The notes under the pieces: model-generated
What the model was told of the DNA's origin: nothing
What the model saw: only the letters and a program-made list of their open reading frames with translations
The model's database searches: none
NCBI GenBank assembly: GCA_029862125.1
Contig: JAOTXY010000011.1
Span: 572 to 64,571, forward strand
DNA: 64,000 nucleotides
Reading direction: 5' to 3'
From: Gammaproteobacteria bacterium
Lineage (GTDB): Bacteria; Pseudomonadota; Gammaproteobacteria; GCA-001735895
Position numbers and translations under genes: made by a program
In this document: piece by piece, positions 20,088 through 58,332 of the stretch
How positions within the stretch are numbered: the first letter of the stretch is position 1
Layout: each line of letters begins with the position of its first letter

Positions 20088-20333
20088 ATGTCGGAGTTAT
20101 CCCGCTTGCGCTGGTTATGCCGTCGCGGCATGAAAGAGCTGGATGTAGTGATGAGCAGATATCTCGAGGACTATTACGAATCTGCCTCAACGATTGACCA
20201 GGATATTTTTAAAGCATTACTGGAAATGCCCGATCCGGATTTATATGAACTGCTGCTTGGACGCAGTGAAGAAAACGATCCCGAACTGATGCGCTTTATT
20301 GAATTTTTACGCCACATGTCGGGACAGGATTAA
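20088..20333 (+). CDS. sdhE: FAD assembly factor SdhE (SDHAF2)
   Basis: RLRWLCRRGMKELD signature. Confidence 0.95.
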   Translation: MSELSRLRWLCRRGMKELDVVMSRYLEDYYESASTIDQDIFKALLEMPDPDLYELLLGRSEENDPELMRFIEFLRHMSGQD

Positions 20334-20345
20334 CAGGGATGTCGC

Positions 20346-20762
20346 TTGCAAAAATACTACGAGATTCAACCTTCTAAATCGCAACTCGTTTGTCTACTGG
20401 TTATCCATGGACTGGTCGCCGTTACGATTATTTTTTATATGCAGCCGGGCCTGCTGAAACTGAGCAGTTTAGCCCTGGTGTTGTTGCTGGCAGTAACTGA
20501 ATCCAGGTACCTGATTCGACAGGAGATTATAAAATTGCGCCTCGATTCAAAGGGCGAAACAATTGAAATGGAACGGGACGGACAACCATATTTCTACAGT
20601 AAAAACAAGGTTTACCAGACTCGATGGTTTGCTATTCTTAAGCTGGTTAACGAACAGAAATCAAGGACCCTGATATTGAATCCAGATCGCTTTAGTTCGA
20701 TCCAGTCTTACCGTCAGATGCGCTACCTTTTGCGCAAGATGGAGCAGCGTAATGTTGCTTGA
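20346..20762 (+). CDS. ygfX: YgfX/CptA-like inner membrane protein
   Basis: Directly after sdhE; two N-terminal TM segments and a C-terminal D...YRQMRYLL motif typical of the family. Confidence 0.6.
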   Translation: MQKYYEIQPSKSQLVCLLVIHGLVAVTIIFYMQPGLLKLSSLALVLLLAVTESRYLIRQEIIKLRLDSKGETIEMERDGQPYFYSKNKVYQTRWFAILKLVNEQKSRTLILNPDRFSSIQSYRQMRYLLRKMEQRNVA

Positions 20763-25012: not shown

Positions 25013-25248
25013 GGGCCTAATAGCGCAATTTTCCTGTAGCCAGGGCCCCGCTCTACAACGAAATGATTGAATCAGTTGGTGGAACATTTCACGGCCGTTA
25101 AAGCAGAAGATTTCCCGCGAAATCAAGGTCTTGAACACATCTGTTCAGTTTAAACCTGCCCTGGATCACACAATTAGTAAAAAGCCAGAATATTGACGGT
25201 TATGACCTAGACTTAGGATTGGTGTGTAACAGCTATCGATTGAACATT

Positions 25249-26253
25249 ATGCGTGTATTATCCGTGCCCCTGGGCCTGATTTTCTTTATCGTCAGTACTA
25301 TCTACCCAGGCCAGGCAAACGAGCTGCAATTCTTCCGAATAGGTACCGGCGGTATCGCGGGGACTTACTACCCGATCGGCGGTATGATTGCCAGTGCGGT
25401 CAGCAACCCGCCGGGATCGCGCCCCTGCGATCAGGGTGGGAGTTGCGGCCCACCCGGTCTGGTGGTGATCGCCCAGTCGGCAAATGGTTCGGTGTCGAAC
25501 GTCAGGGGTATGGAGATGGGTCACCTCGAATCTGGATTCGTGCAATCGGATATCGCTTACTGGGCCTATACCGGAACCGGAACTTTTAAAGGCGAAAGGC
25601 CCTTTCGACAGCTTCGTGCCATTGCTAATTTATATCCCGAAAGCATTCATATCGTAACACGCAAGGATGCGGGTATTCGCAGCGTTCGTGGCCTGGTCGG
25701 CAAACGCGTTTCGCTCGATGAGCCCGGTTCGGGTACCTTGATTGACGCCGAGCTTGTATTGAGCGCGTACGGCATTTCCAAGAATGATATTCGGGTTGAA
25801 TATACCAAGCCGGACCTGGCTGTCAGGAGAATCAAGGACAACAAGCTGGATGCCTTCTTTATCGTGGCCGGTTATCCGGCTCGGGCAGTGGCAGAACTGG
25901 CACAAGATACCGGTATTAATTTAATTCCCATTAATGGTCCCGAAGCGGATCAGCTGGTCTCTTCGCATCGATTTTTTTCTCGAGCTGACATCCCGGGTGG
26001 GGTATATTCGGGTGTTTCACGGGTCGAGACAGTGAGTGTCGGCGCACAATGGCTGGTCGCGTCGACCATGGAAGAAGAAATGATTTACCAGATAACCAAA
26101 ACATTGTGGAATCAGAATTCCCGGAAATTGCTGGATAGTGGTCATGCCAAAGGTCGCTACATTACCATTGAGTCGGCAATGGATGGTATCGCGGTGCCGC
26201 TGCACCCGGGGGCCAGGCGGTTCTACGAAGAAATCGGCATGTCGAAGGAATAA
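25249..26253 (+). CDS. TAXI family TRAP solute-binding protein
   Basis: IGTGGIAGTYYPIG, GSVSNV, QSDIAYWA, LYPESIH, VPLHPGARRFY; signal-like N-terminus from ATG 25249. Confidence 0.92.
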   Translation: MRVLSVPLGLIFFIVSTIYPGQANELQFFRIGTGGIAGTYYPIGGMIASAVSNPPGSRPCDQGGSCGPPGLVVIAQSANGSVSNVRGMEMGHLESGFVQSDIAYWAYTGTGTFKGERPFRQLRAIANLYPESIHIVTRKDAGIRSVRGLVGKRVSLDEPGSGTLIDAELVLSAYGISKNDIRVEYTKPDLAVRRIKDNKLDAFFIVAGYPARAVAELAQDTGINLIPINGPEADQLVSSHRFFSRADIPGGVYSGVSRVETVSVGAQWLVASTMEEEMIYQITKTLWNQNSRKLLDSGHAKGRYITIESAMDGIAVPLHPGARRFYEEIGMSKE

Positions 26254-26304
26254 TTCAGTTTTGCCCAGGGACACCGTAATAATTGTGCTCGCAGGTATTG
26301 GTTA

Positions 26305-28308
26305 ATGAGGATTTTAATCAATAAACTGTTAATGCGTCCGGCGATACCCTTCGCGCTGGTGTTGCTGCTTTTGGTCGGTACCTCCAGTGTTATTTTCTAC
26401 GTCGAAAGAACACTTTCGGAAATAGAGGAAGCGCTACCGATAACCCTGTCCAAGCAGGAGCGCGATATCCGTGTACTCGTCAGCGATATGGGTACATTGT
26501 TGCAGAGTATTGGCATCGCGCGCACCAACCGGGCACCCGGAAATTTCAGCATCGTGCTCAGGCAGATCGACGAAATGCAAATGCACCTCGAGGTAATCAG
26601 GGAGAGCTATCGATTTAACGATGTACTGGGAGCGTCAGCGATCCATGCCAAACTCAATCCAGCCATCTTCGATATCCATACCTGGCTGACCAAGGGGCTT
26701 TATAATTTTGAGCCGACCTCTGCCCAAACCTTGAAAATTGCTGAAATGCGAGCCAAGGAAGCGCATTCGGAAGCCGAGATCTTGCTGTTACAGGTGGGTA
26801 AAACGGCAATTGATGTACTGACCGCGCAGGCGGACAGGATAGACGGTTTTCGAAATATTATGATCTTAACTCTCGCGGTCCTGACGATTATGACCGTGGG
26901 ACTGGTAATGCTGGGGTTCCGACTGCAAAAGAGCGTGCTGGCCCTGAAAGACAGCGAGGAGCAGATTCGCTACCGGGCGAATTATGATTCCTTAACCGAT
27001 TTACCCAACCGCCTGAATTTCATTGAGCACCTTAGCGAAGCAGTATCCCGCAGCCGACGCAACCCGGGTCATACCGCGTTGATGTTTATCGATCTCGATC
27101 GCTTCAAAACCATTAACGATACGCTCGGTCATGATTTCGGGGATGAACTGATCAAGCAGGTCGCGATCAGAATTAGAGAGGTGATTCGTGAAACCGATGT
27201 TGTGTCACGACTCGGAGGGGATGAATTTACCGTGTTGCTGCCCGATATGACGGATGAGATACATGCTTCTATCATTGCCAAAAATATCCTTGCGAGCCTG
27301 GCGGAACCCTTCATGTTGTATGGCCACGAGGTTTACTCAAGTGCCAGTATCGGCATTACGATATCTCCGGATGACGGTGAGGATGCAAATACACTGTTGA
27401 AAAATGCTGATATGGCCATGTACGAGGCCAAGGACCAGGGGCGTAATACGTTTCGTTTCTTTACCTCGCAAATGACTGACCGGGCAAGGCATTTTCTCGA
27501 GCTCGACAAGGACATGCGCAGGGCCCTGTCACAGAACGAACTCCAGGTATATTTTCAACCGATATACGAGCTCCGCAAGCATTCCCTGATAGGAGTTGAA
27601 GCATTACTTCGCTGGCAACATCCTAAAAGAGGACTGATATTACCGGCAGAATTTATTCCCGTGGCCGAGGAAACCGGCCTGATTGAGGAAATTGGACTGT
27701 GGGTATTGCGTAGTGCCTGTAGCGAGGGGTTAGAATGGCTGGACCAGGATTTACATCCCGGTTTTTATCTTGCGGTGAACATATCGATGCGCCAGTTCAA
27801 AGGTGGATTCGACAAAAAGCAAATGCAACAAATTCTGCAGGAGACAGGCTTCCCGGCAGACAAGCTGTTACTCGAAATTACCGAGTCGTTGCTGATGGAT
27901 GAAGATATACGAATTAAGGATGTGCTGGCCGAGTTTCGGGGTATGGGAATCAGGTTGGCAGTCGACGATTTTGGCACCGGTTACTCGGCGTTAAGTTACC
28001 TCAGGGAATTCCCGGTCAATACGCTGAAAATAGACCGTTCCTTTATTCATGATATCGGTGCAAGCGACAGTCATCGGCGTCTGGTCGAAGCAATCATTAC
28101 GATGGCGCATGGCCTGGATTTGATGACGATTGCGGAAGGCGTGGAGACATCCGAACAGGACGCCCTGTTGTCCGAACTAAACTGCGATATGGGGCAGGGG
28201 TATTTCTACTGTAAACCGGTTTCCATTGACAATATTAAGCATCTAACCACTAACAAGAAGCCGCGCCTGGTATTGTTTGATCCCGCCAAAAAAAGCACAA
28301 AGAGCTGA
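26305..28308 (+). CDS. membrane GGDEF-EAL protein with periplasmic sensor domain
   Basis: Two TM segments flanking about 150 aa; YDSLTDLPNR, RETD I-site, GGDEF, EAL, DDFGTGYS, AEGVET. Confidence 0.95.
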   Translation: MRILINKLLMRPAIPFALVLLLLVGTSSVIFYVERTLSEIEEALPITLSKQERDIRVLVSDMGTLLQSIGIARTNRAPGNFSIVLRQIDEMQMHLEVIRESYRFNDVLGASAIHAKLNPAIFDIHTWLTKGLYNFEPTSAQTLKIAEMRAKEAHSEAEILLLQVGKTAIDVLTAQADRIDGFRNIMILTLAVLTIMTVGLVMLGFRLQKSVLALKDSEEQIRYRANYDSLTDLPNRLNFIEHLSEAVSRSRRNPGHTALMFIDLDRFKTINDTLGHDFGDELIKQVAIRIREVIRETDVVSRLGGDEFTVLLPDMTDEIHASIIAKNILASLAEPFMLYGHEVYSSASIGITISPDDGEDANTLLKNADMAMYEAKDQGRNTFRFFTSQMTDRARHFLELDKDMRRALSQNELQVYFQPIYELRKHSLIGVEALLRWQHPKRGLILPAEFIPVAEETGLIEEIGLWVLRSACSEGLEWLDQDLHPGFYLAVNISMRQFKGGFDKKQMQQILQETGFPADKLLLEITESLLMDEDIRIKDVLAEFRGMGIRLAVDDFGTGYSALSYLREFPVNTLKIDRSFIHDIGASDSHRRLVEAIITMAHGLDLMTIAEGVETSEQDALLSELNCDMGQGYFYCKPVSIDNIKHLTTNKKPRLVLFDPAKKSTKS

Positions 28309-28352: not shown

Positions 28353-28937
28353 CTAGTCGAGGTCGTTTAGTAACGAGGCCCGGGTTTCACCGACAATATT
28401 CAGATCATAGCTGTAGACTGGATGTTGAACTCCAATGTCCCATTTCGCGCCTGCTTTTAATTCATGTGCCATTTCATCACTGATTTCGAAGCGCACAAAG
28501 TGCACGGCGGATGTCTTGGTATCGGTGGCTCTCTCTAAATCCTCGTCCGCGATAGACCAGATTTTGTCGTGCTCTCCTACCTGCATCCACAGCAGATCTT
28601 CGATACCCAGCAGTTTTTCGAGTTGAGCCGCGCGAATAACCGGGTCGGGATACTCGATCATGAATGTGGCCTTGAAATTGCGCCCACCCGGAACCAGCGG
28701 GTTATAGGCTTCCAGCTCTTCATTGATACCATCGGCTTCAAACACTTTCTCGATGCGCAGCATTTCCTGGATCTGGTAGAGCAGGGTAAGCCGATCTTCA
28801 AAATAGAGGGTCGCGTTTGGACCGAGCGCTACCTGGCGGTGCTTTTTGTGCAATAACACCTGCTGACGGAACTCGCCGCGTTTTTCGGCATACTGCTCCA
28901 GGCTCATTAAATCGTCGCGAGTGATAGGATTACTCAT
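28353..28937 (-). CDS. DUF3501 family protein
   Basis: FEDRLTLLYQIQEMLRIE, AYNPLVP, KTSAVHFVRF; start placed at ATG 28937. Confidence 0.88.
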   Translation of the reverse strand: MSNPITRDDLMSLEQYAEKRGEFRQQVLLHKKHRQVALGPNATLYFEDRLTLLYQIQEMLRIEKVFEADGINEELEAYNPLVPGGRNFKATFMIEYPDPVIRAAQLEKLLGIEDLLWMQVGEHDKIWSIADEDLERATDTKTSAVHFVRFEISDEMAHELKAGAKWDIGVQHPVYSYDLNIVGETRASLLNDLD

Positions 28938-28951
28938 AGTCGTTTCCATCA

Positions 28952-30289
28952 TCAAATTCCGTAGGCCTGTCGTAACAGGCTGATAGGGTGCTGGGTGCTG
29001 CTGCCATCGTCGAGCCCGGCAGAAATATGGTGGCCGGCCATGGGGCAGTCACTGGCGTAGGCGTCAGGCTCTGCTTTTTGCACGCGATTGACCACGGGTC
29101 TGGCGATCTTCATTGACGCCTGGTGAAATTCCTGCTTGATCGCGTAGGTACCATCATGTCCCGAGCAGCGCTCGATCGTGTCGATCTCGGTACCGGGGAT
29201 TAACGCCAGTATGTCGCGTGTTTTCATGCCAATACGTTGCACCCGTTGATGACATGCAACGTGGTAACTGATCTTGCCGATACTATTTTGAAAATCGGTT
29301 TTGAGCAATCCCGCCTTGTTACGCAACGCCAGGTATTCGAAGGGATCGAAAAAAGCTGCCTGTACCTTTGACACTGCTGCATCCTCGGGGAACATCAGCG
29401 GCAATTCCTGTTTGAACTGCAGGGTACAGGAGGGAACCGGTGAAATAATATCCCAGCCCTCGTTAACCAGCCTGGCCAGCAGCGGTATATTGTGATTTTT
29501 TAATATTTCGACCGCGTCAAGATCACCCAGCTCCAGTTTTGGCATACCGCAGCAAACCGTATTCTTTACCACCATGGTGGGGATGCCGTTATGTTCGAAA
29601 ACTGCAAGCAGGTCTTCGCCCAGCAGGGGTTCGTTATACTCGCCGTAACAGGTGGCGAAGATAGCGACCTTGCCGCTGGTTTTATCGGTGGCCTGGATTT
29701 CGACATCGGCGGGTTTGTGCGCGGAGGTGCGCTTGCTCAGGGTTTTACTGTCGTACCTGGGCAAACGTGCCTCGGCCGCGATCCCGAGTGAAGACTCCAG
29801 TAGCGCACGGGTGTGTTCGTTGTTGTTAACAGCGTTGACCAGGTTGACCACGACAGGGATGCTGGCAAGACTGCCGATGCGATCGGTTGAAGTGACCAGC
29901 TTGTCGCGCAGCTTGGTGCGGCCCTGTTTGTAACCGATTGCCTTGGCGCGCAACATCAGGTGCGGAAAGTCAACGTTCCATTCATGGGGTGGAACATAAG
30001 GGCACTTGGTCAGGTAGCAGAGGTCGCAGAGATAGCACTGGTCGACAACTTTCCAGTAATCTGCCTTGTCGACTCCGTCGACCTCGAAGGTCTCGGATTC
30101 ATCGACCAGGTCGAACAGGGTCGGGAATGCGTTGCACAGGCTGACACAGCGGCGACAGCCGTGGCAAATATCGTAGACACGCTCAAGCTCTTCGAAGAGT
30201 GCTCCCGCATCGTAAAAACCAGGGTCATTTTGGCCGAGCGGATGACGGGTAGGCGCCTCGAGACTACCCTCGCGAGATTCAGTTGCCAT
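28952..30289 (-). CDS. Fe-S oxidoreductase (HdrD/GlpC-like; rubrerythrin-associated)
   Basis: CHGCRRCVSLC, CYLCDLCYLTKCPY, CCG domains (CCGMP, CSGHDGT). Confidence 0.9.
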   Translation of the reverse strand: MATESREGSLEAPTRHPLGQNDPGFYDAGALFEELERVYDICHGCRRCVSLCNAFPTLFDLVDESETFEVDGVDKADYWKVVDQCYLCDLCYLTKCPYVPPHEWNVDFPHLMLRAKAIGYKQGRTKLRDKLVTSTDRIGSLASIPVVVNLVNAVNNNEHTRALLESSLGIAAEARLPRYDSKTLSKRTSAHKPADVEIQATDKTSGKVAIFATCYGEYNEPLLGEDLLAVFEHNGIPTMVVKNTVCCGMPKLELGDLDAVEILKNHNIPLLARLVNEGWDIISPVPSCTLQFKQELPLMFPEDAAVSKVQAAFFDPFEYLALRNKAGLLKTDFQNSIGKISYHVACHQRVQRIGMKTRDILALIPGTEIDTIERCSGHDGTYAIKQEFHQASMKIARPVVNRVQKAEPDAYASDCPMAGHHISAGLDDGSSTQHPISLLRQAYGI

Positions 30290-30305
30290 CTATGTTCCGT
30301 TGAAT

Positions 30306-30335
30306 GAAATCCGGATCCCGAAGGATCCGGATTTC
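30306..30335 (-). other. perfect 13-bp intercistronic hairpin with cUUCGg tetraloop
   Basis: Minus strand reads GAAATCCGGATCC-TTCG-GGATCCGGATTTC between the rubrerythrin stop and the oxidoreductase start. Confidence 0.85.
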
Positions 30336-30343
30336 GAGGAGGA

Positions 30344-30763
30344 TTAAGCGTCGAGGTTATCGAGTGCTTTCTGGAAGCGATTAGCGTGCGAACGCTCTGC
30401 TTTTGCCAGCGTTTCAAACCAGTCGGCGATTTCGTCAAAACCTTCGTCGCGAGCAGATTTTGCCATGCCCGGATACATGTCTGTGTATTCGTGGGTTTCC
30501 CCGGCAATCGAAGCTTTCAGATTTTGCTCAGTGCTGCCAATGGGCAGGCCGGTTGCAGGATCACCAACTTCCTCGAGGTACTCCAGGTGTCCGTGTGCAT
30601 GGCCGGTTTCACCCTCAGCTGTAGAGCGGAACACTGCTGACACGTCATTAAAGCCTTCAACGTCGGCCTTGGCGGCAAAATACAGATAACGGCGATTAGC
30701 CTGTGATTCACCAGCAAAAGCGTCTTTCAGGTTTTGTTCGGTTTTAGATCCTTTCAGGGACAT
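30344..30763 (-). CDS. rbr: rubrerythrin, short aerobic type lacking the rubredoxin domain
   Basis: [36 protein letters not shown]; ends without CxxC; start ATG 30763 with GGAGG upstream. Confidence 0.93.
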
Positions 30764-30829
30764 GATGCCTCCAGTTGAGTTATTTAACATTTCGGAGGGG
30801 CATAGTAGCAATTCTGTTGTATAAATGAA

Positions 30830-44499: not shown

Positions 44500-46743
44500 T
44501 CAACGAATCAGGTAAATCGGGCTGGACCAGGAGTAGTGGCCGTCTTCATGCGTTACCCGGACATAAAGCGGGTTATCGCGTTGCGTAACCAGTTCGATAT
44601 CGCGTTCGATTTTTAACGCGCAATGGGGATTATGATCGGGTAATCGAAACACTCTTATTCGACGCTCGATGCCACCGTTAGCAAAAATTAATTCATGGCG
44701 TCCGATATCGCTAATCTCGATCTCCTGCTGAACCAGTGCAGTATCGATGTGCAAAGTGCCTGTATCGCGTTCCCGTAATATGGCTTCAAAGCCACCAAAT
44801 CCACCGGTTGTCAGCGCACTCCATTCAACGCGGTCGTCAGCGGTCTGTTGGAAACGTCGATCCAGGTTGTAGCGATTGATCGGCGTCACCGACTCGAAAC
44901 CGTTATCGCTCAGTTTTGCATGACCATCCCAGATGGTTTCGCGACCGCGGCCGCGATACTCGGAGCCTTCCCAGATGACACGGATGCGATGCCCGAGATC
45001 GGCTTCGCTGTAAGGGCGAAAGATTTCCAGCGTATCGAGCCCGTTACGGATATCGATGCGCTCGATGGGTGCTGCGCTGTGAACGTCAATGTGGAACTTT
45101 ACGCTGTCCTGCGAGGTTTGCAGGATGTCACCCATCATCGCTTCGCGTACCATTTCAGAACTGACGTCACCCAGCCTCGGATCGTCGGAGAAGAGTTCAG
45201 CCGGTTGCGTGAATTCGACCCGGGTATCCAGTATCACCCGACTGCCGGTAGTGCCGTAGTGATGCCTTTGACGTAAACCCTGCATGATACCTGCGCGGGT
45301 AAAGTCGGGCGCCAGCACACAGGTCAGGCCGCCATAAGCACCAAAACTGGTAGAACCGGGGTGAGATGCCCCGGGACGGCCCTTGTGTCCATCGGAGTTA
45401 GAAAGGATACCGACGCGGTAACCCTGCTCGAAAGCGTCGTGAACCAGCCATTCGAAGGTGCCCCAGGCCGAATGAACTTCGACGCCCTTTTCGATGCGCT
45501 GGTCGTGGGCAACCTTGATATCGGCATAGCGTCCGCCGATATGTGCAAACACGGTGCAATCCTCATCCTTTAATGCCTCGAATAAATCGCCGGCCGAGGT
45601 TGCGTCGCTTTCGACATCGGACAAATCATCAACCAGCGCATGCGAGGAGCGATGTATCGGTCGACCTTCATGCATGTGCAGCACATTCCTGTCGCCACCC
45701 AGCCCGGTATTGCCCGACCATTCCCAGCCGGGAAACACGATGAAGCTTCCATCCTCGGTAAATTCCGCGGAAAGTTCGTTAAGCCATTGCCAGAATTCAC
45801 CGGTTATTTGAAAGTCATTCCCCTGGTGCACGCAAATATCGAGGAATGCCTTGTCGCGCGCAAACTCGTAGAAATCGCGTGCCGAATTGGTACCGATGGT
45901 TTCCTCCGACTGGCCATGCAGGTCGCCCCAGTAGGGCAGTAAATCGGCATCGGCGATGAATCGACAGGGATTCGATTTAGCAAGCAGGTTGTCGTCGGCG
46001 TCGAGCAACTCGATAATCAAATCACCAGTCTCGACAACATTCAGATGTTCGAGAATCCGTGTGAATTTGCCAACTTCAAAAGTAACCGAATCGGGCAGGC
46101 CATCGACGATCATATTGGCGCGTAACTTCAGCTTCAGGTCGCCAAGATTCGATGGATTGCCCCAGCGGTCTTCTCCCTTGAGGCAAAGCCGGAAACTGTC
46201 CTGTTGCTGCCGCATGGTCGGTAATATCGCTTTAAAGAGGACGGGTGGGCCAGGCACGATCTCGATCTCCGGCTGATGCGGCAGTTCAACATAGTTGTAG
46301 GTTGCTATCGCATCGACAAGCACCTTGAATTCGAAGGTTTTCTCACAAAAGGTCTGGATCCGCATGCCGGGTGAGCCTTGGCGTCGATCACCGAAACGCA
46401 CAATGATCTGATCACCCTCGCGCAAAAATCCCCGCACTACCTTAATGTAAAGCGTCTTGTCCCAGGGACGGATATTTCGCTTCATATCGTACTCGATATG
46501 TAAAACGGCCCCGTTAGTGGCTTCGGCGGTGACATAATTGGCAGCATCGGGTTTGTCAAACTGGGGTTTGCCCATGTCCGACGCAAAACGATGCACTATT
46601 TTGAGTGACCCGGTATCGTCGATTCCAAAATAACCCGCGGTATAAGTGAGGGTGAATTCCTGGAACGAGCCAGCTTCGAAACTACCGGTTGGTGCAACCG
46701 AGGCTGAACCCATCTTTTCGGGAAGGTAGGTAGAGTGGGGCAC
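44500..46743 (-). CDS. DUF3604-like PHP-fold putative metallohydrolase
   Basis: YWGDLHGQS, HQGND, FPGWEWSG, AHIGG, EVHSAWG, NSDGH metal-binding-type motifs; no signal peptide. Confidence 0.75.
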   Translation of the reverse strand: MPHSTYLPEKMGSASVAPTGSFEAGSFQEFTLTYTAGYFGIDDTGSLKIVHRFASDMGKPQFDKPDAANYVTAEATNGAVLHIEYDMKRNIRPWDKTLYIKVVRGFLREGDQIIVRFGDRRQGSPGMRIQTFCEKTFEFKVLVDAIATYNYVELPHQPEIEIVPGPPVLFKAILPTMRQQQDSFRLCLKGEDRWGNPSNLGDLKLKLRANMIVDGLPDSVTFEVGKFTRILEHLNVVETGDLIIELLDADDNLLAKSNPCRFIADADLLPYWGDLHGQSEETIGTNSARDFYEFARDKAFLDICVHQGNDFQITGEFWQWLNELSAEFTEDGSFIVFPGWEWSGNTGLGGDRNVLHMHEGRPIHRSSHALVDDLSDVESDATSAGDLFEALKDEDCTVFAHIGGRYADIKVAHDQRIEKGVEVHSAWGTFEWLVHDAFEQGYRVGILSNSDGHKGRPGASHPGSTSFGAYGGLTCVLAPDFTRAGIMQGLRQRHHYGTTGSRVILDTRVEFTQPAELFSDDPRLGDVSSEMVREAMMGDILQTSQDSVKFHIDVHSAAPIERIDIRNGLDTLEIFRPYSEADLGHRIRVIWEGSEYRGRGRETIWDGHAKLSDNGFESVTPINRYNLDRRFQQTADDRVEWSALTTGGFGGFEAILRERDTGTLHIDTALVQQEIEISDIGRHELIFANGGIERRIRVFRLPDHNPHCALKIERDIELVTQRDNPLYVRVTHEDGHYSWSSPIYLIR

Positions 46744-47232
46744 AGGTGTATTGTCCTCGTAAACGTGACAGCGAACAGGTTCTGGTCGCTTATTTTAACT
46801 GGTATAAGGGGCTTTAGAACATGGTTTGTTTTCTCGATAATTCAAATGTACCGAATTAAAACCGGATTTTATCGGCATATCGTTTAATTCGGCGTAAAAC
46901 TGGTACTTAAAGCAATGACGGTTAAGCGTATTTTCTTTATTATTGGAGCAGGCAACATAGGTTCACAAATTTCAACAACGACTATTTTGGTTCGCAACCA
47001 AACGACGGCACTCATACAGGAGACAGACTATTGAATGTTCCGAATAAGCAGTTTCCCTCCTCATCGGTAACCTTTTCCATGTTGATTTCAGAATCAATTT
47101 ACAAGCATGTCGTGGGTATCGAACCTACTATTCGCTGGTTTGCAAAAGCTGTTTTCAGACCCTGCCTGGCCCAGTTCAGGTGCCTGCTATGGTGAAAACA
47201 GATATCCAAATCGTACAAATCGGCGTCGATTT

Positions 47233-48465
47233 ATGATCCAACGCAGGTTTGTAGCAGCCACGCTATCGTGTCTATTAATGGGAGTCCCCGGCCTGGCACA
47301 GGCTGCCGTTTGCGATATCGATAAAGATGGCGACGTGGATCGCCTGGATATCAGCCTGATCATCAGTGCACGCGATACACCGGCGGATGGATCACGCGAT
47401 CTGCGTGATCCAGACGGTGACGGCAATATCACAGTGTTCGATGCACGGACCTGTATACGGCGGTGTAATTTGCCAGACTGTCAGATAGTCGATCCTGCAC
47501 CCCCTCCCACAACCGATAATTCAGACCAACTTAAAACACCGGTGGTAACTCCAGCTCAGAATACAGGAGATAAAGCCAGTAAACCAAGCGTGGCAGCTAC
47601 AAATCAGTCAGGTACTGGTATCCAGGGAAGGGCGATGGCCAGCGGCACTAAATGGAAAGTAAAACGTGGCGATACCCTGTATGCGATCGGTCGTGCTGTT
47701 TATCCGGGGGATGTCAATAAGCAGGCCCGTTTAAGGCAGGATATCATCAAGTTGAATCCCGCTATTTTCGCCAATGGCGCCAATAAAATGGCCGTTGGTG
47801 TCGTTCTGAAACTGCCCGATTATGTCATTCCAAAAGATGCGCCGGTCGAAGCTACTCCCAAACCACCGCCAAAGCTTGTTGAGCCTGCCCCGGTCGTTAA
47901 GCCTGCCCCGGTCGTTAAGCCTGCCCCGGTCGTTAAGCCTGCCCCGGTGGTTGAACCTGAACCCGAAACACCACAGGAAATCTCGGCATCTTTCGTGCGC
48001 ACAGAAAGTAATTACCTGGTCAGTCTTGGTTACGCTTACGGTGGGGATAAGCTGGTTTATGAAGATGGTTCCTACGATCCTGCAGGGGCTGGTGCCCATG
48101 CGCGTCTGGGTTATGAACAAATGTATCAATTTGGTGGCGGCTATCGCGTAGGGCTCGGTTTTCAATACGGTTTTACGGAAGACTCGACATTGCAGGATGT
48201 CTATTTGCAATTGGCGTATCAATATCGCTCAAATCCATTTATTTTCGGGATTGGTGTTGTTGTTCATGATGGGGCGACGCTCGAAGATGATTCCACTATC
48301 GAATACGATGCCGCAAATGGTGTGGTTGTGTATTTGGAGAATGTCGGGAAAGGTGACCTGGCTGGCTGGGGGCTTAGTTACACCTCCCTGGATATTGAAG
48401 ACAAAGACAGCTCTGAATCATTTGATGCATCGCGAGCCGAACTTTATTACAGTTGGCGTTTTTAA
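47233..48465 (+). CDS. outer-membrane protein: dockerin-like EF-hand pair + LysM + Pro-rich linker + beta-barrel
   Basis: Signal peptide from ATG 47233; DIDKDGDVD and DPDGDGNIT loops; WKVKRGDTLYAIG...LKLP LysM; C-terminal alternating strands ending YYSWRF. Confidence 0.8.
   Translation: MIQRRFVAATLSCLLMGVPGLAQAAVCDIDKDGDVDRLDISLIISARDTPADGSRDLRDPDGDGNITVFDARTCIRRCNLPDCQIVDPAPPPTTDNSDQLKTPVVTPAQNTGDKASKPSVAATNQSGTGIQGRAMASGTKWKVKRGDTLYAIGRAVYPGDVNKQARLRQDIIKLNPAIFANGANKMAVGVVLKLPDYVIPKDAPVEATPKPPPKLVEPAPVVKPAPVVKPAPVVKPAPVVEPEPETPQEISASFVRTESNYLVSLGYAYGGDKLVYEDGSYDPAGAGAHARLGYEQMYQFGGGYRVGLGFQYGFTEDSTLQDVYLQLAYQYRSNPFIFGIGVVVHDGATLEDDSTIEYDAANGVVVYLENVGKGDLAGWGLSYTSLDIEDKDSSESFDASRAELYYSWRF
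47883..47954 (+). repeat. 18-bp coding tandem repeat x4 (PAPVVK)
   Basis: GCCTGCCCCGGTCGTTAA three times exactly, plus one variant copy. Confidence 0.95.
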
Positions 48466-55914: not shown

Positions 55915-58332
55915 ATGCGCTCACATGCACAGGTTGTTGTCATTGGCGGCGGTGTCGTCGGTTGCAGCGTTATCTACCATTTAACCAGGTTCGGCTGGAA
56001 AGATGTCGTCCTGATCGAACGTTCCGAGCTGACCTCGGGCTCTACCTGGCATGCGGCGGGTGGATTTCACACCTTGAATGCCGATACCAACATGGCTGCC
56101 TTGCAGGGATACACGATTCGCCTCTATCGTGAACTCGAGGAGATTACCGGTCAATCCTGCAGTTTGCACCATGTCGGCGGCCTTACCTTGGCTGAATCCC
56201 CGGAACGTCTCGACTTTCTCAAATCCGCTCGCGCAATGCATCGGCACATGGGTCTCGATACCGAGCTGGTAACACCTGAAGAGATTCGCAAGCTTAGCCC
56301 TATTACCAATACCGATGGTGTACTCGGAGCGCTTTATGATCCTTTGGATGGGCACCTCGACCCTTCGGGAACCACCCATGCCTACGCCAGGGCGGCGCAG
56401 ATGCAGGGGGCCGAAATCATCCTGCGCAACCCCGTGCTCGAGACTAACCCGCGTGCCGACGGTAACTGGGAAGTGGTCACCGAGCAGGGCACGATCGTGG
56501 CCGAGCAGTTGGTCAATGCAGCCGGTCTGTGGGCGCGCGAAGTCGCTGCAATGGCCGGCGTTTACCTGCCGCTGCATCCAATGGAGCACCAGTATTTTGC
56601 GACCGACGATATTGCCGAAGTGTTTGAACGCGATGCCGAATTACCGCACGTGATGGACCCTGAAGGGGAGAGCTACCTGCGCCAGGAAGGGAAGGGGCTG
56701 GTGATCGGTTTTTACGAGCAGAATTGCGTTCCGTGGGCAGTAGACGGTACGCGCTGGGATTTCGGTCACGAGTTATTGAGCGAAAACCTGGATCGTATCG
56801 GCGATTCGATGGAATTTGCTTTCAAACGCTACCCGGTGTTAGCCGAGGCCGGCATCAAGACCATCATCAACGGTCCGTTTACTTTTGCGCCGGATGGTAA
56901 TCCGCTGGTGGGCCCGGTACCGGGTTTACGCAACTACTGGTCCGCCTGCGCGGTCATGGCGGGTTTCAGCCAGGGCGGCGGGGTCGGCTTGACGCTCGCC
57001 GAATGGATGATCGAGGGCGAGCCTTCGCGCGATGTGTTTGCGATGGATGTGGCGCGGTTTGGTGATTACTGCAATCCTTCGTATACCCGCTTAAAGGTTA
57101 CCGAGAATTATCAACGCCGCTTTACCGTGTCGTATCCGAACGAAGAACTACCTGCTGCAAGACCGCTCGACACCACGCCGGCCTACGGTATCTGGCAACA
57201 GCAAAACGCGGTGTTTGGATCGGCTTACGGCATGGAGCACGTCAACTATTTTGCCCCGGCAGGGGAGGATCCTTACGAAGTACCCAGCTTACGGCGTTCT
57301 AACGCCTTTGACACCGTGGCAGAGGAATGTCGAGCGGTGCGCGAAGGGGTTGGTATTAACGAAGTCCATAATTTCGGCAAGTACGAAGTTAGCGGTCCGG
57401 GTGCGCACCAATACCTCGATATCATAATGGCCGGTAAGATCCCGGCCCCCGGTCGTATCAGCCTGAACCCGATGCTGAGCCCGGGCGGTAAGATAATCGG
57501 TGATTTCACAGTAGGCCGTCTGCGTGACGACGTGTTCCAGGTAACCGCATCATTTGGCGCACAGGCTTACCATATGCGCTGGTTTGAGCAGCATCTGCCG
57601 CAAAACGGTGTTAATTTGAAAAATATTTCCAAGGAGCGTATCGGCTTCCAGATTGCAGGTCCAAAGGCACAGGAGTTACTGAGTCGTGTAACCCGTGCCG
57701 ACGTATCGACGGCTGCGTTGCCATTTCTTTCTATACGAGAAATCGATGTCGGCCAGTGCCAGGCGATCGTACAACGCGTTAGTTACACCGGGGATCGTGG
57801 CTACGAACTCTATGTGCCATCACACCAGCAGGTAGCGTTGTATGAAATATTGATGGAGGCGGGCGCCGATCTCGGTCTGCGCCCTTTTGGTATGCGAGCG
57901 ATGATGAGCCTGCGACTGGACAAGTCATTCGGTTCATGGATGCGAGAATTCAAGCCTGACTATACTCCGCTGGAAACAGGTCTCGATCGTTTCGTCGATT
58001 ACGACAAGGACACTGAATTTATCGGTAAGGCCGCCGTGAGCGCCGAGCGTGAAAAGGGAGCAACGCGTAAATTGTGTACTTTCGTGGTCGACGCAAAAGA
58101 TGCCGATACGGTCGCCTGGGAGCCAATCTGGCATGACGGCGAGGTGGTTGGCTATGTGACGTCGGGCGGTTACTCGCATCATGCGCAAAAAAGCATCGCG
58201 TTCGGATTTTTACCAGTGGCACTGGTTGAAGAGGGTCGAGAGGTCGAAATTGAAATTCTCGGCGAAATGATTCCGGCCAGGCTTTATTCAGCTCCTTTGT
58301 TCGACCCAAAAAACGAATACCTGCGCGGGTAG
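55915..58332 (+). CDS. dimethylglycine dehydrogenase-like FAD oxidoreductase with GcvT domain
   Basis: IGGGVVG, SGSTWHAAG, NGPFTFAPDG, SYTGDRGYE, SLRLDK, VTSGGYSH. Confidence 0.92.
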   Translation: MRSHAQVVVIGGGVVGCSVIYHLTRFGWKDVVLIERSELTSGSTWHAAGGFHTLNADTNMAALQGYTIRLYRELEEITGQSCSLHHVGGLTLAESPERLDFLKSARAMHRHMGLDTELVTPEEIRKLSPITNTDGVLGALYDPLDGHLDPSGTTHAYARAAQMQGAEIILRNPVLETNPRADGNWEVVTEQGTIVAEQLVNAAGLWAREVAAMAGVYLPLHPMEHQYFATDDIAEVFERDAELPHVMDPEGESYLRQEGKGLVIGFYEQNCVPWAVDGTRWDFGHELLSENLDRIGDSMEFAFKRYPVLAEAGIKTIINGPFTFAPDGNPLVGPVPGLRNYWSACAVMAGFSQGGGVGLTLAEWMIEGEPSRDVFAMDVARFGDYCNPSYTRLKVTENYQRRFTVSYPNEELPAARPLDTTPAYGIWQQQNAVFGSAYGMEHVNYFAPAGEDPYEVPSLRRSNAFDTVAEECRAVREGVGINEVHNFGKYEVSGPGAHQYLDIIMAGKIPAPGRISLNPMLSPGGKIIGDFTVGRLRDDVFQVTASFGAQAYHMRWFEQHLPQNGVNLKNISKERIGFQIAGPKAQELLSRVTRADVSTAALPFLSIREIDVGQCQAIVQRVSYTGDRGYELYVPSHQQVALYEILMEAGADLGLRPFGMRAMMSLRLDKSFGSWMREFKPDYTPLETGLDRFVDYDKDTEFIGKAAVSAEREKGATRKLCTFVVDAKDADTVAWEPIWHDGEVVGYVTSGGYSHHAQKSIAFGFLPVALVEEGREVEIEILGEMIPARLYSAPLFDPKNEYLRG

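Follow-up and report, generated by a model that had tools for sequence, protein, structure and literature searches.

A TAXI-family binding-protein gene paired with a membrane GGDEF-EAL gene: a candidate binding-protein-dependent c-di-GMP sensor

In the window—the whole 64-kb stretch of gammaproteobacterial DNA analysed here—a gene for a TAXI-family solute-binding protein is followed on the same strand by one for a membrane GGDEF-EAL protein. The preliminary description had given this anatomy as a TAXI gene, a 51-nt spacer and a GGDEF-EAL gene whose product has two transmembrane (TM) helices, and the recounted coordinates as well as the profile and hydropathy analyses agree with it; the intact GGDEF, RxxD I-site, EAL and DDFGTGYS motifs that it named were likewise all located in the sequence. 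Upstream of the pair lie iscS, iscU and cysG, and downstream, on the opposite strand, genes for DUF3501, a CCG-domain protein and rubrerythrin. No Rfam match was found within the 64-kb window. The features of the pair are as follows.

25013..25248, forward strand: 236 nt separating cysG from the TAXI gene; putative promoter region of the pair
25249..26253, forward strand: gene for a TAXI-family periplasmic solute-binding protein of 334 aa, ATG at 25249; proposed ligand-binding co-sensor
25249..25317, forward strand: TAXI signal peptide, aa 1-23, read from the sequence, with predicted cleavage after GQA
25351..25872, forward strand: span of the predicted ligand-pocket residues of the TAXI protein, mapped onto the VcGluP pocket (PMC11574862)
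25402..25458, forward strand: two-cysteine loop SNPPGSRPCDQGGSCGPPG, aa 52-70 of the TAXI protein, an insertion relative to 1US4 and 8S4J, about 13 residues longer
26254..26304, forward strand: intergenic spacer between the TAXI and GGDEF-EAL genes, exactly 51 nt by count
26305..28308, forward strand: gene for the membrane GGDEF-EAL protein, 667 aa (PF00990, 180.7 bits; PF00563, 246.3 bits)
26341..26403, forward strand: TM helix 1, aa ~13-33, from hydropathy; helical in the AF2 model
26404..26856, forward strand: periplasmic sensor domain, aa ~34-184, an AF2-modelled four-helix bundle between the TM helices; proposed TAXI docking site
26857..26919, forward strand: TM helix 2, aa ~185-205, from hydropathy, running on as a short helical stalk into GGDEF
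26977..27447, forward strand: GGDEF domain, aa 225-381 (Pfam PF00990)
27187-27198, forward strand: RETD I-site, aa 295-298, five residues ahead of GGDEF
27214-27228, forward strand: GGDEF motif, aa 304-308, intact
27511..28218, forward strand: EAL domain, aa 403-638 (Pfam PF00563)

Consensus scans recognised neither a sigma-70 promoter nor a terminator-like site in 25013..25248, and no promoter-like or terminator-like site in the 51-nt spacer. In one related locus (L002) the pair sits ~470 nt past iscU with no cysG between, and for this reason we take the pair to have an upstream region of its own. The sequence is supported by Illumina contigs from sediment metagenomes, which contain zero indels in either coding region, and positions that vary among related populations tend toward the 3-base spacing expected of third codon positions—a pattern that fits purifying selection acting on both genes.

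The product of the first gene is, by profile scores and by sequence alignment to solved TAXI structures, a clear member of the TAXI family. It matched TIGR02122 (TRAP_TAXI) over aa 7-330 with 304.7 bits (cut-off 84.35) and PF16868 (NMT1_3) over profile positions 1-289 of 289 with 247.8 bits (cut-off 27); NMT1_3 was the only Pfam family found, besides a sub-threshold match to the related NMT1 family. Residues 25-332 could be aligned to both TtGluBP (1US4, E = 6.7e-51) and VcGluP (8S4J, E = 8.2e-50). Homologues number more than 120, at 65-94% identity, and because they are 334 aa long at 100% coverage, the ATG at 25249 is the likely start, the open reading frame list also offering a TTG at 25219. 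The N-terminus reads as a Sec-type signal peptide, MRVLSVPLGLIFFIVSTIYPGQA followed by NE, with a basic residue, a hydrophobic core and a small-x-small cleavage site, and reading of the N-terminal sequence revealed no lipobox cysteine. Alignment to the solved TAXI structures begins at aa 25-27.

The second gene encodes a protein for which no NCBIfam equivalog scored above its cut-off. R2, K7 and R11 stand ahead of TM helix 1, which fits a cytoplasmic N-terminus, and AF2 models TM helix 2 and the stalk as a single unbroken helix (140-224). Between TM helix 2 and GGDEF, where Pfam is blank, neither a HAMP nor a PAS domain was found. The canonical catalytic and metal-binding motifs of the predicted EAL domain are all present in the sequence, comprising EALLRW (432-437), AVNIS with N493, EITES, DDFGTGYS (554-561), KIDRS, EGVE and QGYF, and the protein also carries a KTINDTLGH motif. 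Many homologues are truncated; a genuinely split sensor gene was dropped as an explanation for the window, where the reading frame is intact and the Illumina contigs are free of indels. The breaks in the sensor genes of L001 and L002 fall at different places, and the names of their contigs suggest low-coverage long-read assemblies.

Between the two TM helices lies a region for which neither a Pfam model (even at E <= 5) nor an NCBIfam model or PDB sequence relative was found. AF2 predicted it to be helical (pLDDT 82; helices 2-74, 78-101, 110-130 and 140-224), and the best Foldseek matches were periplasmic helical sensor domains—QseE, Adeh_2942, LytS-N, PcaY, NarQ and Tar—with weak scores (best E = 0.012, none <= 0.001) and a target-normalised TM-score of up to 0.72 (Adeh_2942 sensor, 4K0D). 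In general architecture the predicted fold resembles known four-helix periplasmic sensors (4HB_MCP, TarH, NarX/Q-type and similar families), with no profile match to any of them. An exhaustive HMMER search returned 193 clusters. The domain has a strongly conserved motif (Y102, G109, H114, A115, P119, D123, W127, G131 and R149), of which P119, D123, W127, G131 and R149 are invariant. Of the 71 members scanned, 43 carry HisKA, 23 GGDEF, 17 EAL and 2 Guanylate_cyc; throughout, the domain sits at the N-terminus, with a TM helix on either side and a signalling output attached. Judged by these searches, the sensor domain is a modular, undescribed family that occurs mostly in histidine kinases, a point that the preliminary description had missed. 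All members found come from uncultured organisms, and a tblastn search of 72,556 plasmids gave no match to a kinase-type sensor domain, so that no annotated example from a cultured organism came to light.

Adjacency of the two genes extends well beyond the window. The same order was seen in 22/22 related loci: a TAXI gene and, immediately after it on the same strand, a gene encoding the same N-terminal sensor domain. Approached from the TAXI side (L005-L009 and L039-L042; TAXI identity 63-94%), the following gene encoded the sensor with GGDEF-EAL, and not a permease, in 9/9 loci; approached from the sensor side, an NMT1_3 gene stood immediately upstream in each of L001-L004 and a TAXI gene in 9/9 of L030-L038, for a total of 13/13. 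The latter loci were found in a metagenome scan with an alignment of 11 kinase-type sensor sequences, and the sensor-side loci include remote histidine-kinase versions (~30-35% sensor identity). A protein search with a diverse alignment of 35 sensor sequences brought up only 18 close fragments that were already known; the most remote sensor members (adenylate-cyclase type, the weakest matches) stand outside the 22-locus context count. At least five gene contexts are represented: an isc-cysG/DUF3501 type, an isc/Mur-ligase type (L002, L040 and L042), and unrelated flanks in L003, L004, L009, L039, L041 and L030-L038. Because the flanks differ between loci, we regard the two-gene pair as the conserved unit, and no consistent third gene hinting at a ligand or regulon was seen near the pairs among the loci inspected. 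Gap lengths span -4 to 62 nt, close relatives having 44-62 nt, with a 4-nt start/stop overlap in five loci (L002, L030, L033, L035 and L042); this range and these overlaps point to probable co-transcription and translational coupling. Pairwise identities of TAXI and sensor co-vary (r = 0.94; 0.78 among divergent pairs), and the TAXI reading frames of the paired loci are intact at 43-94% identity. On these comparative grounds, the pairing of TAXI and sensor is not a product of chance.

TAXI proteins are usually regarded as transporter subunits. A hydropathy scan of all open reading frames of at least 150 aa in the window detected none with more than five TM segments, and hence no polytopic permease; the lone 5-TM reading frame is FtsK. 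The absence of a TRAP permease alongside the pair, which had been claimed for the locus, therefore holds for the entire window. No permease was found beside the TAXI-sensor pair in the 22 related loci either, and an adjacent DctQ/DctM-type membrane component, by which a TAXI-TRAP system is recognised, is absent from the window and from all 22. The control comprised 20 more distant TAXI loci (28-43% identity) retrieved by the same scan as L005-L009, 18 of which had readable downstream sequence; a fused permease of 10-20 TM segments lay directly downstream in 18/18. The synteny survey proposed in the preliminary description thus separates the related TAXI genes, paired with the sensor in every case, from the distant ones with their permeases. 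The reading given there, of the TAXI protein as a signalling receptor, gains support from a pairing that is conserved from both sides; in so far as its refuting conditions, a pairing that is not conserved or a TAXI protein that serves a permease, are open to computation, they did not apply.

We then turn to the pocket of the TAXI protein, whose predicted residues (G35, T39, Y40, Y41, S81, Q99, Y129, E131, G162, T163, I205, V206 and G208) correspond, in order, to S40, V44, Y45, Y46, S75, Q93, H123, E125, G156, D157, Y200, M201 and G203 of VcGluP. In VcGluP, the alpha-amino and alpha-carboxyl groups of the ligand are held by Y45, S75, Q93, E125 and G156 (PMC11574862), and equivalents of all five are retained here; the main difference from the TtGluBP pocket is accounted for by two positions. 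By this mapping, the predicted pocket lies close to the pockets of TtGluBP and VcGluP, which bind Glu/Gln; the likeliest ligand is an alpha-amino acid like glutamate or glutamine, in keeping with an earlier guess at an organic or amino acid, which the retained residues would fit. Across the alignment of 19 sensor-linked TAXIs the pocket columns hardly change, while in permease-linked TAXIs they vary. These 19 form one clade in a simple neighbour-joining (NJ) tree of 27 sequences, in which the nearest outgroup is the TAXI of L029. That protein is linked to a 17-TM permease and carries the two-cysteine loop, from which we conclude that transport ancestry is recent and dual use possible. The loop occurs in all sensor-linked TAXIs; we dropped it as a candidate signalling-specific docking element, since the permease-linked L029 TAXI has it too.

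Several known systems share part of this arrangement. The closest precedent, already drawn in the preliminary description, is NspS-MbaA of Vibrio cholerae, found also in Sinorhizobium meliloti, in which a polyamine binding protein controls a 2-TM GGDEF-EAL enzyme. The parallel stands for logic and gene order: there too the binding-protein gene lies directly upstream of the 2-TM GGDEF-EAL gene without a cognate transporter alongside, and NspS is proposed to bind the periplasmic part of MbaA and to shift the balance of cyclase and phosphodiesterase (PMC8050422, PMC8967002). It does not extend to homology, which is undetectable in either sensing part. NspS is a PotD-like SBP_bac_8 protein, whereas ours is a TAXI (NMT1_3) protein; the ligand is a polyamine rather than the amino acid class predicted here; and the MbaA periplasmic domain, listed as dCache-like (PMC8050422), is by that description unlike the all-helical four-helix bundle of our AF2 model. 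ScrB-ScrC of Vibrio parahaemolyticus resembles the pair in having a membrane GGDEF-EAL protein that takes its signal from a binding protein (PMC8050422), but ScrB belongs to SBP_bac_3, a third gene (scrA) makes the signal and the periplasmic domain is of another type.

In XylFII-LytS (5XSJ), QseG-QseE (9M08), MBP-Tar and GlnH-GlnX, the periplasmic sensor domain is helical and serves as the docking site for a periplasmic protein that is either soluble or lipid-anchored. Structures of these systems rank among the closest in fold to the sensor model, which resembles helical periplasmic sensors with known protein partners, namely those in the complexes QseE-QseG (9M08) and XylFII-LytSN (5XSJ), and that of Tar. 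Most members of the sensor family are themselves histidine kinases. Unlike our pair, however, these systems lack a TAXI partner, and they show no sequence similarity to the sensor. TAXI-TRAP systems (VcGluPQM, TtGluBP) and TAXI-GltS (BP0403) share with our locus a TAXI member with a very similar Glu/Gln-binder pocket and differ in the partner, which here is a signalling protein, with no transport component adjoining. TAXI-GltS illustrates that TAXI proteins can swap the TRAP permease for another partner (bioRxiv 10.1101/2024.11.27.625746). Reviews count 13 families of binding proteins that act on receptors, and in the portions of these sources that were accessible no TAXI protein appears among the entries (PMC9602780, PMC8050422). 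We found no published description of the TAXI-sensor pairing in the literature.

Because the pairing recurs in every related locus examined and no transporter accompanies it, the binding protein is most likely the ligand sensor of the enzyme, and we consider it probable that the TAXI and GGDEF-EAL genes together encode a binding-protein-dependent c-di-GMP sensor. The TAXI protein would be exported to the periplasm and bind a small ligand, and in its loaded or unloaded form would dock on the four-helix bundle that the GGDEF-EAL protein exposes to the periplasm. From there the signal would travel via TM helix 2 and the short helical stalk, shifting the balance between diguanylate cyclase (GGDEF, with its I-site) and phosphodiesterase (EAL) activity. 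Under this proposal the TAXI protein here would be no transporter subunit, and its sub-clade would be tied to a single modular receptor domain, which is likewise found N-terminally in histidine kinases, GGDEF-only proteins and nucleotide cyclases. The anatomy, the strictly conserved adjacency, the lack of a neighbouring permease, the conserved pocket and the modular use of the sensor domain are direct findings; the contact between TAXI protein and sensor, the nature of the ligand and the way in which the enzymatic switch turns are ones that we infer.

It is unlikely, in our judgement, that the TAXI protein still serves as a transport subunit for a TAXI-TRAP or GltS-like permease encoded elsewhere, with adjacency reflecting co-regulation or an added signalling role, as in MBP-Tar and BctC-BctE. 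The sister TAXI of L029, with its cysteine loop and 17-TM permease, speaks for such a role, as does the ability of TAXI proteins to serve partners not encoded by TRAP genes, exemplified by TAXI-GltS (bioRxiv 10.1101/2024.11.27.625746). Against it, permeases are absent beside all 22 loci and from the 64-kb window, and a pocket that is invariant across very different hosts and outputs better suits a dedicated sensor. Gene order argues in the same direction: a binding protein whose target is a kinase tends to have its gene beside the signalling gene, and one that also transports, beside the transporter (PMC8050422).

That near-invariant pocket, which would not be expected had ligand binding been lost across the clade, also makes it quite improbable that the four-helix domain senses directly while the TAXI protein modulates it independently of any ligand, repressing it or acting as a scaffold in the way of YfiR-YfiN, or as a lipoprotein partner like QseG-QseE, even though the conserved residues Y102-R149 of the sensor motif could form a ligand site and the best fold match is the QseE-QseG complex. 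As for a decaying orphan TAXI gene that merely happens to lie beside an unrelated GGDEF-EAL gene, such an explanation is scarcely credible given a pair kept in 22/22 loci across contexts, overlapping stop and start codons, and TAXI frames that stay intact, with their pocket conserved, over the whole 43-94% range of identity.

Looking beyond the single locus, we lean, with less assurance than for the pair itself, toward a widespread and undescribed class of TAXI-dependent receptors, in which the TAXI proteins of one dedicated sub-clade, sharing a fixed pocket of the amino-acid type, would be the obligatory periplasmic partners of a new four-helix domain fused to histidine kinases, GGDEF, GGDEF-EAL or nucleotide cyclases. 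If this is true, TAXI proteins would for the first time have a role in signalling, and a new sensor domain family would be defined. The pairing itself, if it works as proposed, would bring a new family of binding proteins into bacterial signal transduction and give a function to the N-terminal domain, so far unannotated, of about 190 protein clusters, most of them histidine kinases. It would also mean that the label "TAXI family TRAP transporter solute-binding subunit" misleads annotation pipelines for the sensor-linked clade. For the organisms themselves, the pairing suggests that marine-sediment Gammaproteobacteria may couple an extracellular amino-acid cue to c-di-GMP.

The TAXI gene and the GGDEF-EAL gene stand side by side in the following arrangement:

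Upstream of the pair: iscS-iscU-cysG
25249-26253 (+): TAXI solute-binding protein, 334 aa, ATG at 25249 (open reading frame, full-length profile matches)
Between the genes (+): spacer of exactly 51 nt (sequence)
26305-28308 (+): GGDEF-EAL membrane protein, 667 aa, ATG at 26305 (open reading frame, Pfam)
Residues ~13-33 and ~185-205 of the GGDEF-EAL protein: hydrophobic helices TM1 and TM2, enclosing a loop of ~150 aa
Residues 225-381 and 403-638: GGDEF and EAL domains, C-terminal to TM2 (Pfam)
28353-30811 (-): downstream neighbours on the opposite strand—DUF3501, CCG-domain protein, rubrerythrin

The TAXI protein reaches 304.7 bits against TIGR02122 (cut-off 84) and 247.8 against PF16868, matches the solved structures of TtGluBP (1US4, E = 7e-51) and VcGluP (8S4J, E = 8e-50), and has an N-terminus that reads as a cleavable signal peptide lacking a lipobox cysteine. 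In its partner, RETD sits five residues ahead of GGDEF, and every EAL-half motif was found (EALLRW, the N of AVNIS, EITES, DDFGTGYS, KIDRS, EGVE, and QGYF); judged by these motifs, both domains look catalytically competent. A hydropathy scan of the 64-kb window found no permease, in that no open reading frame exceeds five predicted TM segments, and the only one with five is FtsK. Open reading frames, profiles, and the TM scan thus bear out every anatomical detail of the preliminary description, namely the 51-nt gap, the two-TM GGDEF-EAL protein, its intact motifs, and the lack of a permease.

Illumina sediment-metagenome contigs span the pair with its coding sequence free of indels; the only indel variation seen over the locus is one nucleotide deleted and one inserted at 26290-26293, inside the spacer, in the contig from run X1. 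The two genes share a reading frame, separated by one TAA codon plus 17 sense codons; we saw no sign of read-through or fusion, and relatives show overlaps or other spacer lengths. Elsewhere in the window lie a 747-aa protein with only a weak DUF3604 match (44500-46743, -) and a 452-aa protein without a Pfam match (47107-48465, +). Immediately downstream of sdhA and sdhB come, at 20088-20762, an sdhE-like gene (81 aa) and then a 138-aa ORF with homologues that match PF07254 (Cpta_toxin); we take these two to be the known sdhE-ygfX (CptB-CptA) pair.

Conservation of the pairing was examined from both sides. The first 225 residues of the GGDEF-EAL protein retrieved 21 database hits, every one a fragment, and in each of the four looked up (L001-L004) the immediately preceding gene, in the same orientation, is an NMT1_3 gene. 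A TAXI-based scan of 185,579 species-representative genomes gave five close relatives (71-94% identity, L005-L009) and 20 distant ones (28-43%, L010-L029), whose downstream genes were judged with an ORF, BLAST, and hydropathy script. The next gene downstream encodes the sensor-GGDEF-EAL protein in all five close relatives, whereas a 10-20-TM permease directly follows in 18/18 readable distant loci (L022 and L028, where contig ends cut off the downstream side, are not counted). A TAXI gene followed by a permease is the classical TAXI-TRAP layout. Four further TAXIs on long contigs (68-69% identical, L039-L042) all precede a 663-685-aa GGDEF-EAL gene with the same sensor domain. Finally, a metagenome scan with a kinase-type sensor alignment, only ~30-35% identical to the window's sensor, yielded nine loci (L030-L038), and in each the TAXI gene is directly upstream of the sensor gene on the same strand; the nine sensor genes encode five histidine kinases, two GGDEF-EAL proteins, and two proteins truncated by contig ends. 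Their TAXIs are 43-60% identical to that of the window, versus 28-43% for the permease-linked TAXIs.

In total, the pair is kept in 22/22 loci, whether reached from the TAXI or the sensor side, in a sample of GGDEF-EAL and histidine-kinase types that extends to sensors ~30-35% identical to the window's. This survey refutes the view that the adjacency is meaningless: chance pairing is not a serious explanation, because of the several thousand genes in each genome only a few encode TAXIs. It also upholds the synteny prediction of the preliminary description, with no permease adjacent to any pair. Spacers range from -4 to 62 nt. TAXI stop and sensor start codons overlap in L002, L030, L033, L035, and L042, an arrangement that usually points to a shared transcript and coupled translation. 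Flanks are of several kinds—isc-cysG and DUF3501 (window, L001, L005-L008), isc(-cysG) and a Mur-ligase-domain gene (L002, L040, L042, with a cyanophycin-synthetase-like gene next in L040 and L042), or unrelated genes (L003, L004, L009, L039, L041)—and because they differ, the conserved unit is the two-gene pair itself. In the closest relatives, the genes for DUF3501, the CCG-domain Fe-S protein (a GlpC-like match below cut-off), and rubrerythrin form a conserved cluster that converges on the GGDEF-EAL gene; distant loci lack them, which places them outside the module. Every family member recovered is from an uncultured organism, and MAGs of sediment Gammaproteobacteria are the source of the window and of its close relatives.

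The sensor domain, the periplasmic part of the GGDEF-EAL protein, had no match in Pfam up to E = 5 and, as a 35-sequence profile, none among PDB sequences; NCBIfam matches in family members are confined to kinase cores. An AlphaFold2 model (pLDDT 82, from 17 homologues) predicts a periplasmic four-helix bundle, in which a long helix runs from TM1 into the periplasm, three more follow, and the last continues through TM2 to the cytoplasm. Foldseek returned no PDB match at E <= 0.001, and the top hits, all above that threshold, are almost entirely helical sensors of the periplasm: QseE (both by itself and bound to the lipoprotein QseG), PcaY, NarQ, Tar, the Adeh_2942 kinase sensor (target-normalised TM-score 0.72), and the LytS N-terminal domain complexed with the binding-protein-like XylFII. 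Several of these receptors are known to be operated by a periplasmic partner protein. Run exhaustively over 1.84 billion representative proteins, the HMMER sensor profile matched 193 clusters at E <= 1e-3 (164 at E <= 1e-10), with the domain N-terminal in all 193. Outputs in 71 members scanned with Pfam were HisKA (43), HATPase_c (42), GGDEF (23), EAL (17), receiver (12), and Guanylate_cyc (2), often with PAS or GAF interposed; the domain is modular, with histidine kinases its main users. Numbered as in the window protein, residues P119, D123, W127, G131, and R149 are invariant, and L44, P45, Y102, G109, H114, and A115 nearly so.

No response regulator gene was seen beside the kinase-type pairs examined; a hemerythrin-domain protein (L035, 7400-8086) adjoins one such pair, and a histidine kinase ending in a hemerythrin domain (L033, 1-2079) another. 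GGDEF-EAL homologues are often split or truncated by a frameshift near TM2 (L001 5396-7400, L002 8001-10011, and database proteins P0001, P0002, P0009, P0010, and P0013), with the alternative frame open for ~40 codons. A real split gene was rejected for the window, whose ORF is intact and where the Illumina contigs are indel-free. The frameshifts in the homologues, which differ in position, are probably assembly errors; the contig names of L001 and L002 suggest low-coverage long-read assemblies.

In a neighbour-joining tree of 27 TAXIs, the 19 sensor-linked proteins form a single clade, sister to L029, a permease-linked TAXI from a Roseicyclus genome. TAXI and sensor pairwise identities co-vary (r = 0.94), which is supporting rather than independent proof, being expected of genes inherited together. 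The clade and L029 (6875-7933) share a ~13-residue insertion with two conserved cysteines (25402-25458 in the window), likely a disulfide loop, that is missing from all solved TAXI structures.

In VcGluP, Y45 and Q93 dominate binding, the alpha-carboxylate is held by S75 and the G156 main chain and the alpha-amino group by Y45, Q93, and E125, and Y200A costs only 3.5-fold in affinity (PMC11574862). Transferring the pocket residues named there through HMMER and our own alignment, we found Y45, Y46, S75, Q93, E125, G156, and G203 unchanged in the window TAXI, whereas S40 becomes G, V44 T, H123 Y, D157 T, Y200 I, and M201 V. At its side-chain end, the pocket is more hydrophobic than that of VcGluP. 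TtGluBP, a Thermus Glu/Gln binder, likewise carries Y in place of H123 and T in place of D157, and the window pocket departs from it mainly through S40G and Y200I. Across all sensor-linked TAXIs, whatever their output, the thirteen pocket columns read G-T/S-Y-Y/F-S-Q-Y-E-G-T-[IVTM]-V/T-G/S, whereas permease-linked TAXIs vary at most of them. On this basis it is quite possible, if short of probable, that all members of the clade respond to one ligand or only a few, most likely a Glu/Gln-type alpha-amino acid. A DAO-FAO_M-GCV_T protein (dimethylglycine/sarcosine dehydrogenase-like) adjoins the pair in two otherwise unrelated loci, L003 (2034-4550, after a fused ABC permease) and L041 (2284-4743), and a paralogue or orthologue lies 27 kb from the pair in the window (55915-58332); its presence could be a clue to the ligand or to the pathway under control (glycine betaine, sarcosine, or glycine catabolism), or may be coincidental.

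We propose that the TAXI protein, ligand-loaded or empty, would dock on the four-helix domain of a receptor that is probably dimeric, by analogy with Tar and LytS; a conformational change could then pass along helix 4 and TM2, and a HAMP-free helical stalk of ~20 residues would relay it straight to the GGDEF domain, shifting the balance between making and degrading c-di-GMP. That the TAXI instead serves a distant permease in transport, alone or in addition to signalling, appears unlikely: the permease-linked sister L029 adds a little to this view, and TAXI-GltS pairing shows that TAXIs can switch partners (bioRxiv 10.1101/2024.11.27.625746), but no permease lies beside any of the 22 pairs and, as a rule of thumb, signalling binding proteins are encoded beside the receptor they act on (PMC8050422). 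That the TAXI protein is a modulator working without a ligand, in the manner of YfiR or QseG, is quite improbable, being hard to reconcile with its invariant pocket.

A review describes two systems in which a binding protein acts on a GGDEF-EAL protein, NspS-MbaA and ScrB-ScrC (PMC8050422). Both resemble the TAXI pair in function but differ in binding-protein family and periplasmic fold, so that the pair belongs to neither; the NspS-MbaA precedent invoked in the preliminary description therefore holds as a functional parallel and not as the same system. A full-text literature search found no paper tying TAXI proteins to diguanylate cyclases, histidine kinases, or signalling, and recent TAXI papers leave orphan TAXIs unexplained or take them as GltS partners (bioRxiv 10.1101/2024.11.27.625746 for GltS). 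The principle of a binding protein controlling a receptor is thus already known; what is new here is the family of the binding protein and the domain of the receptor.
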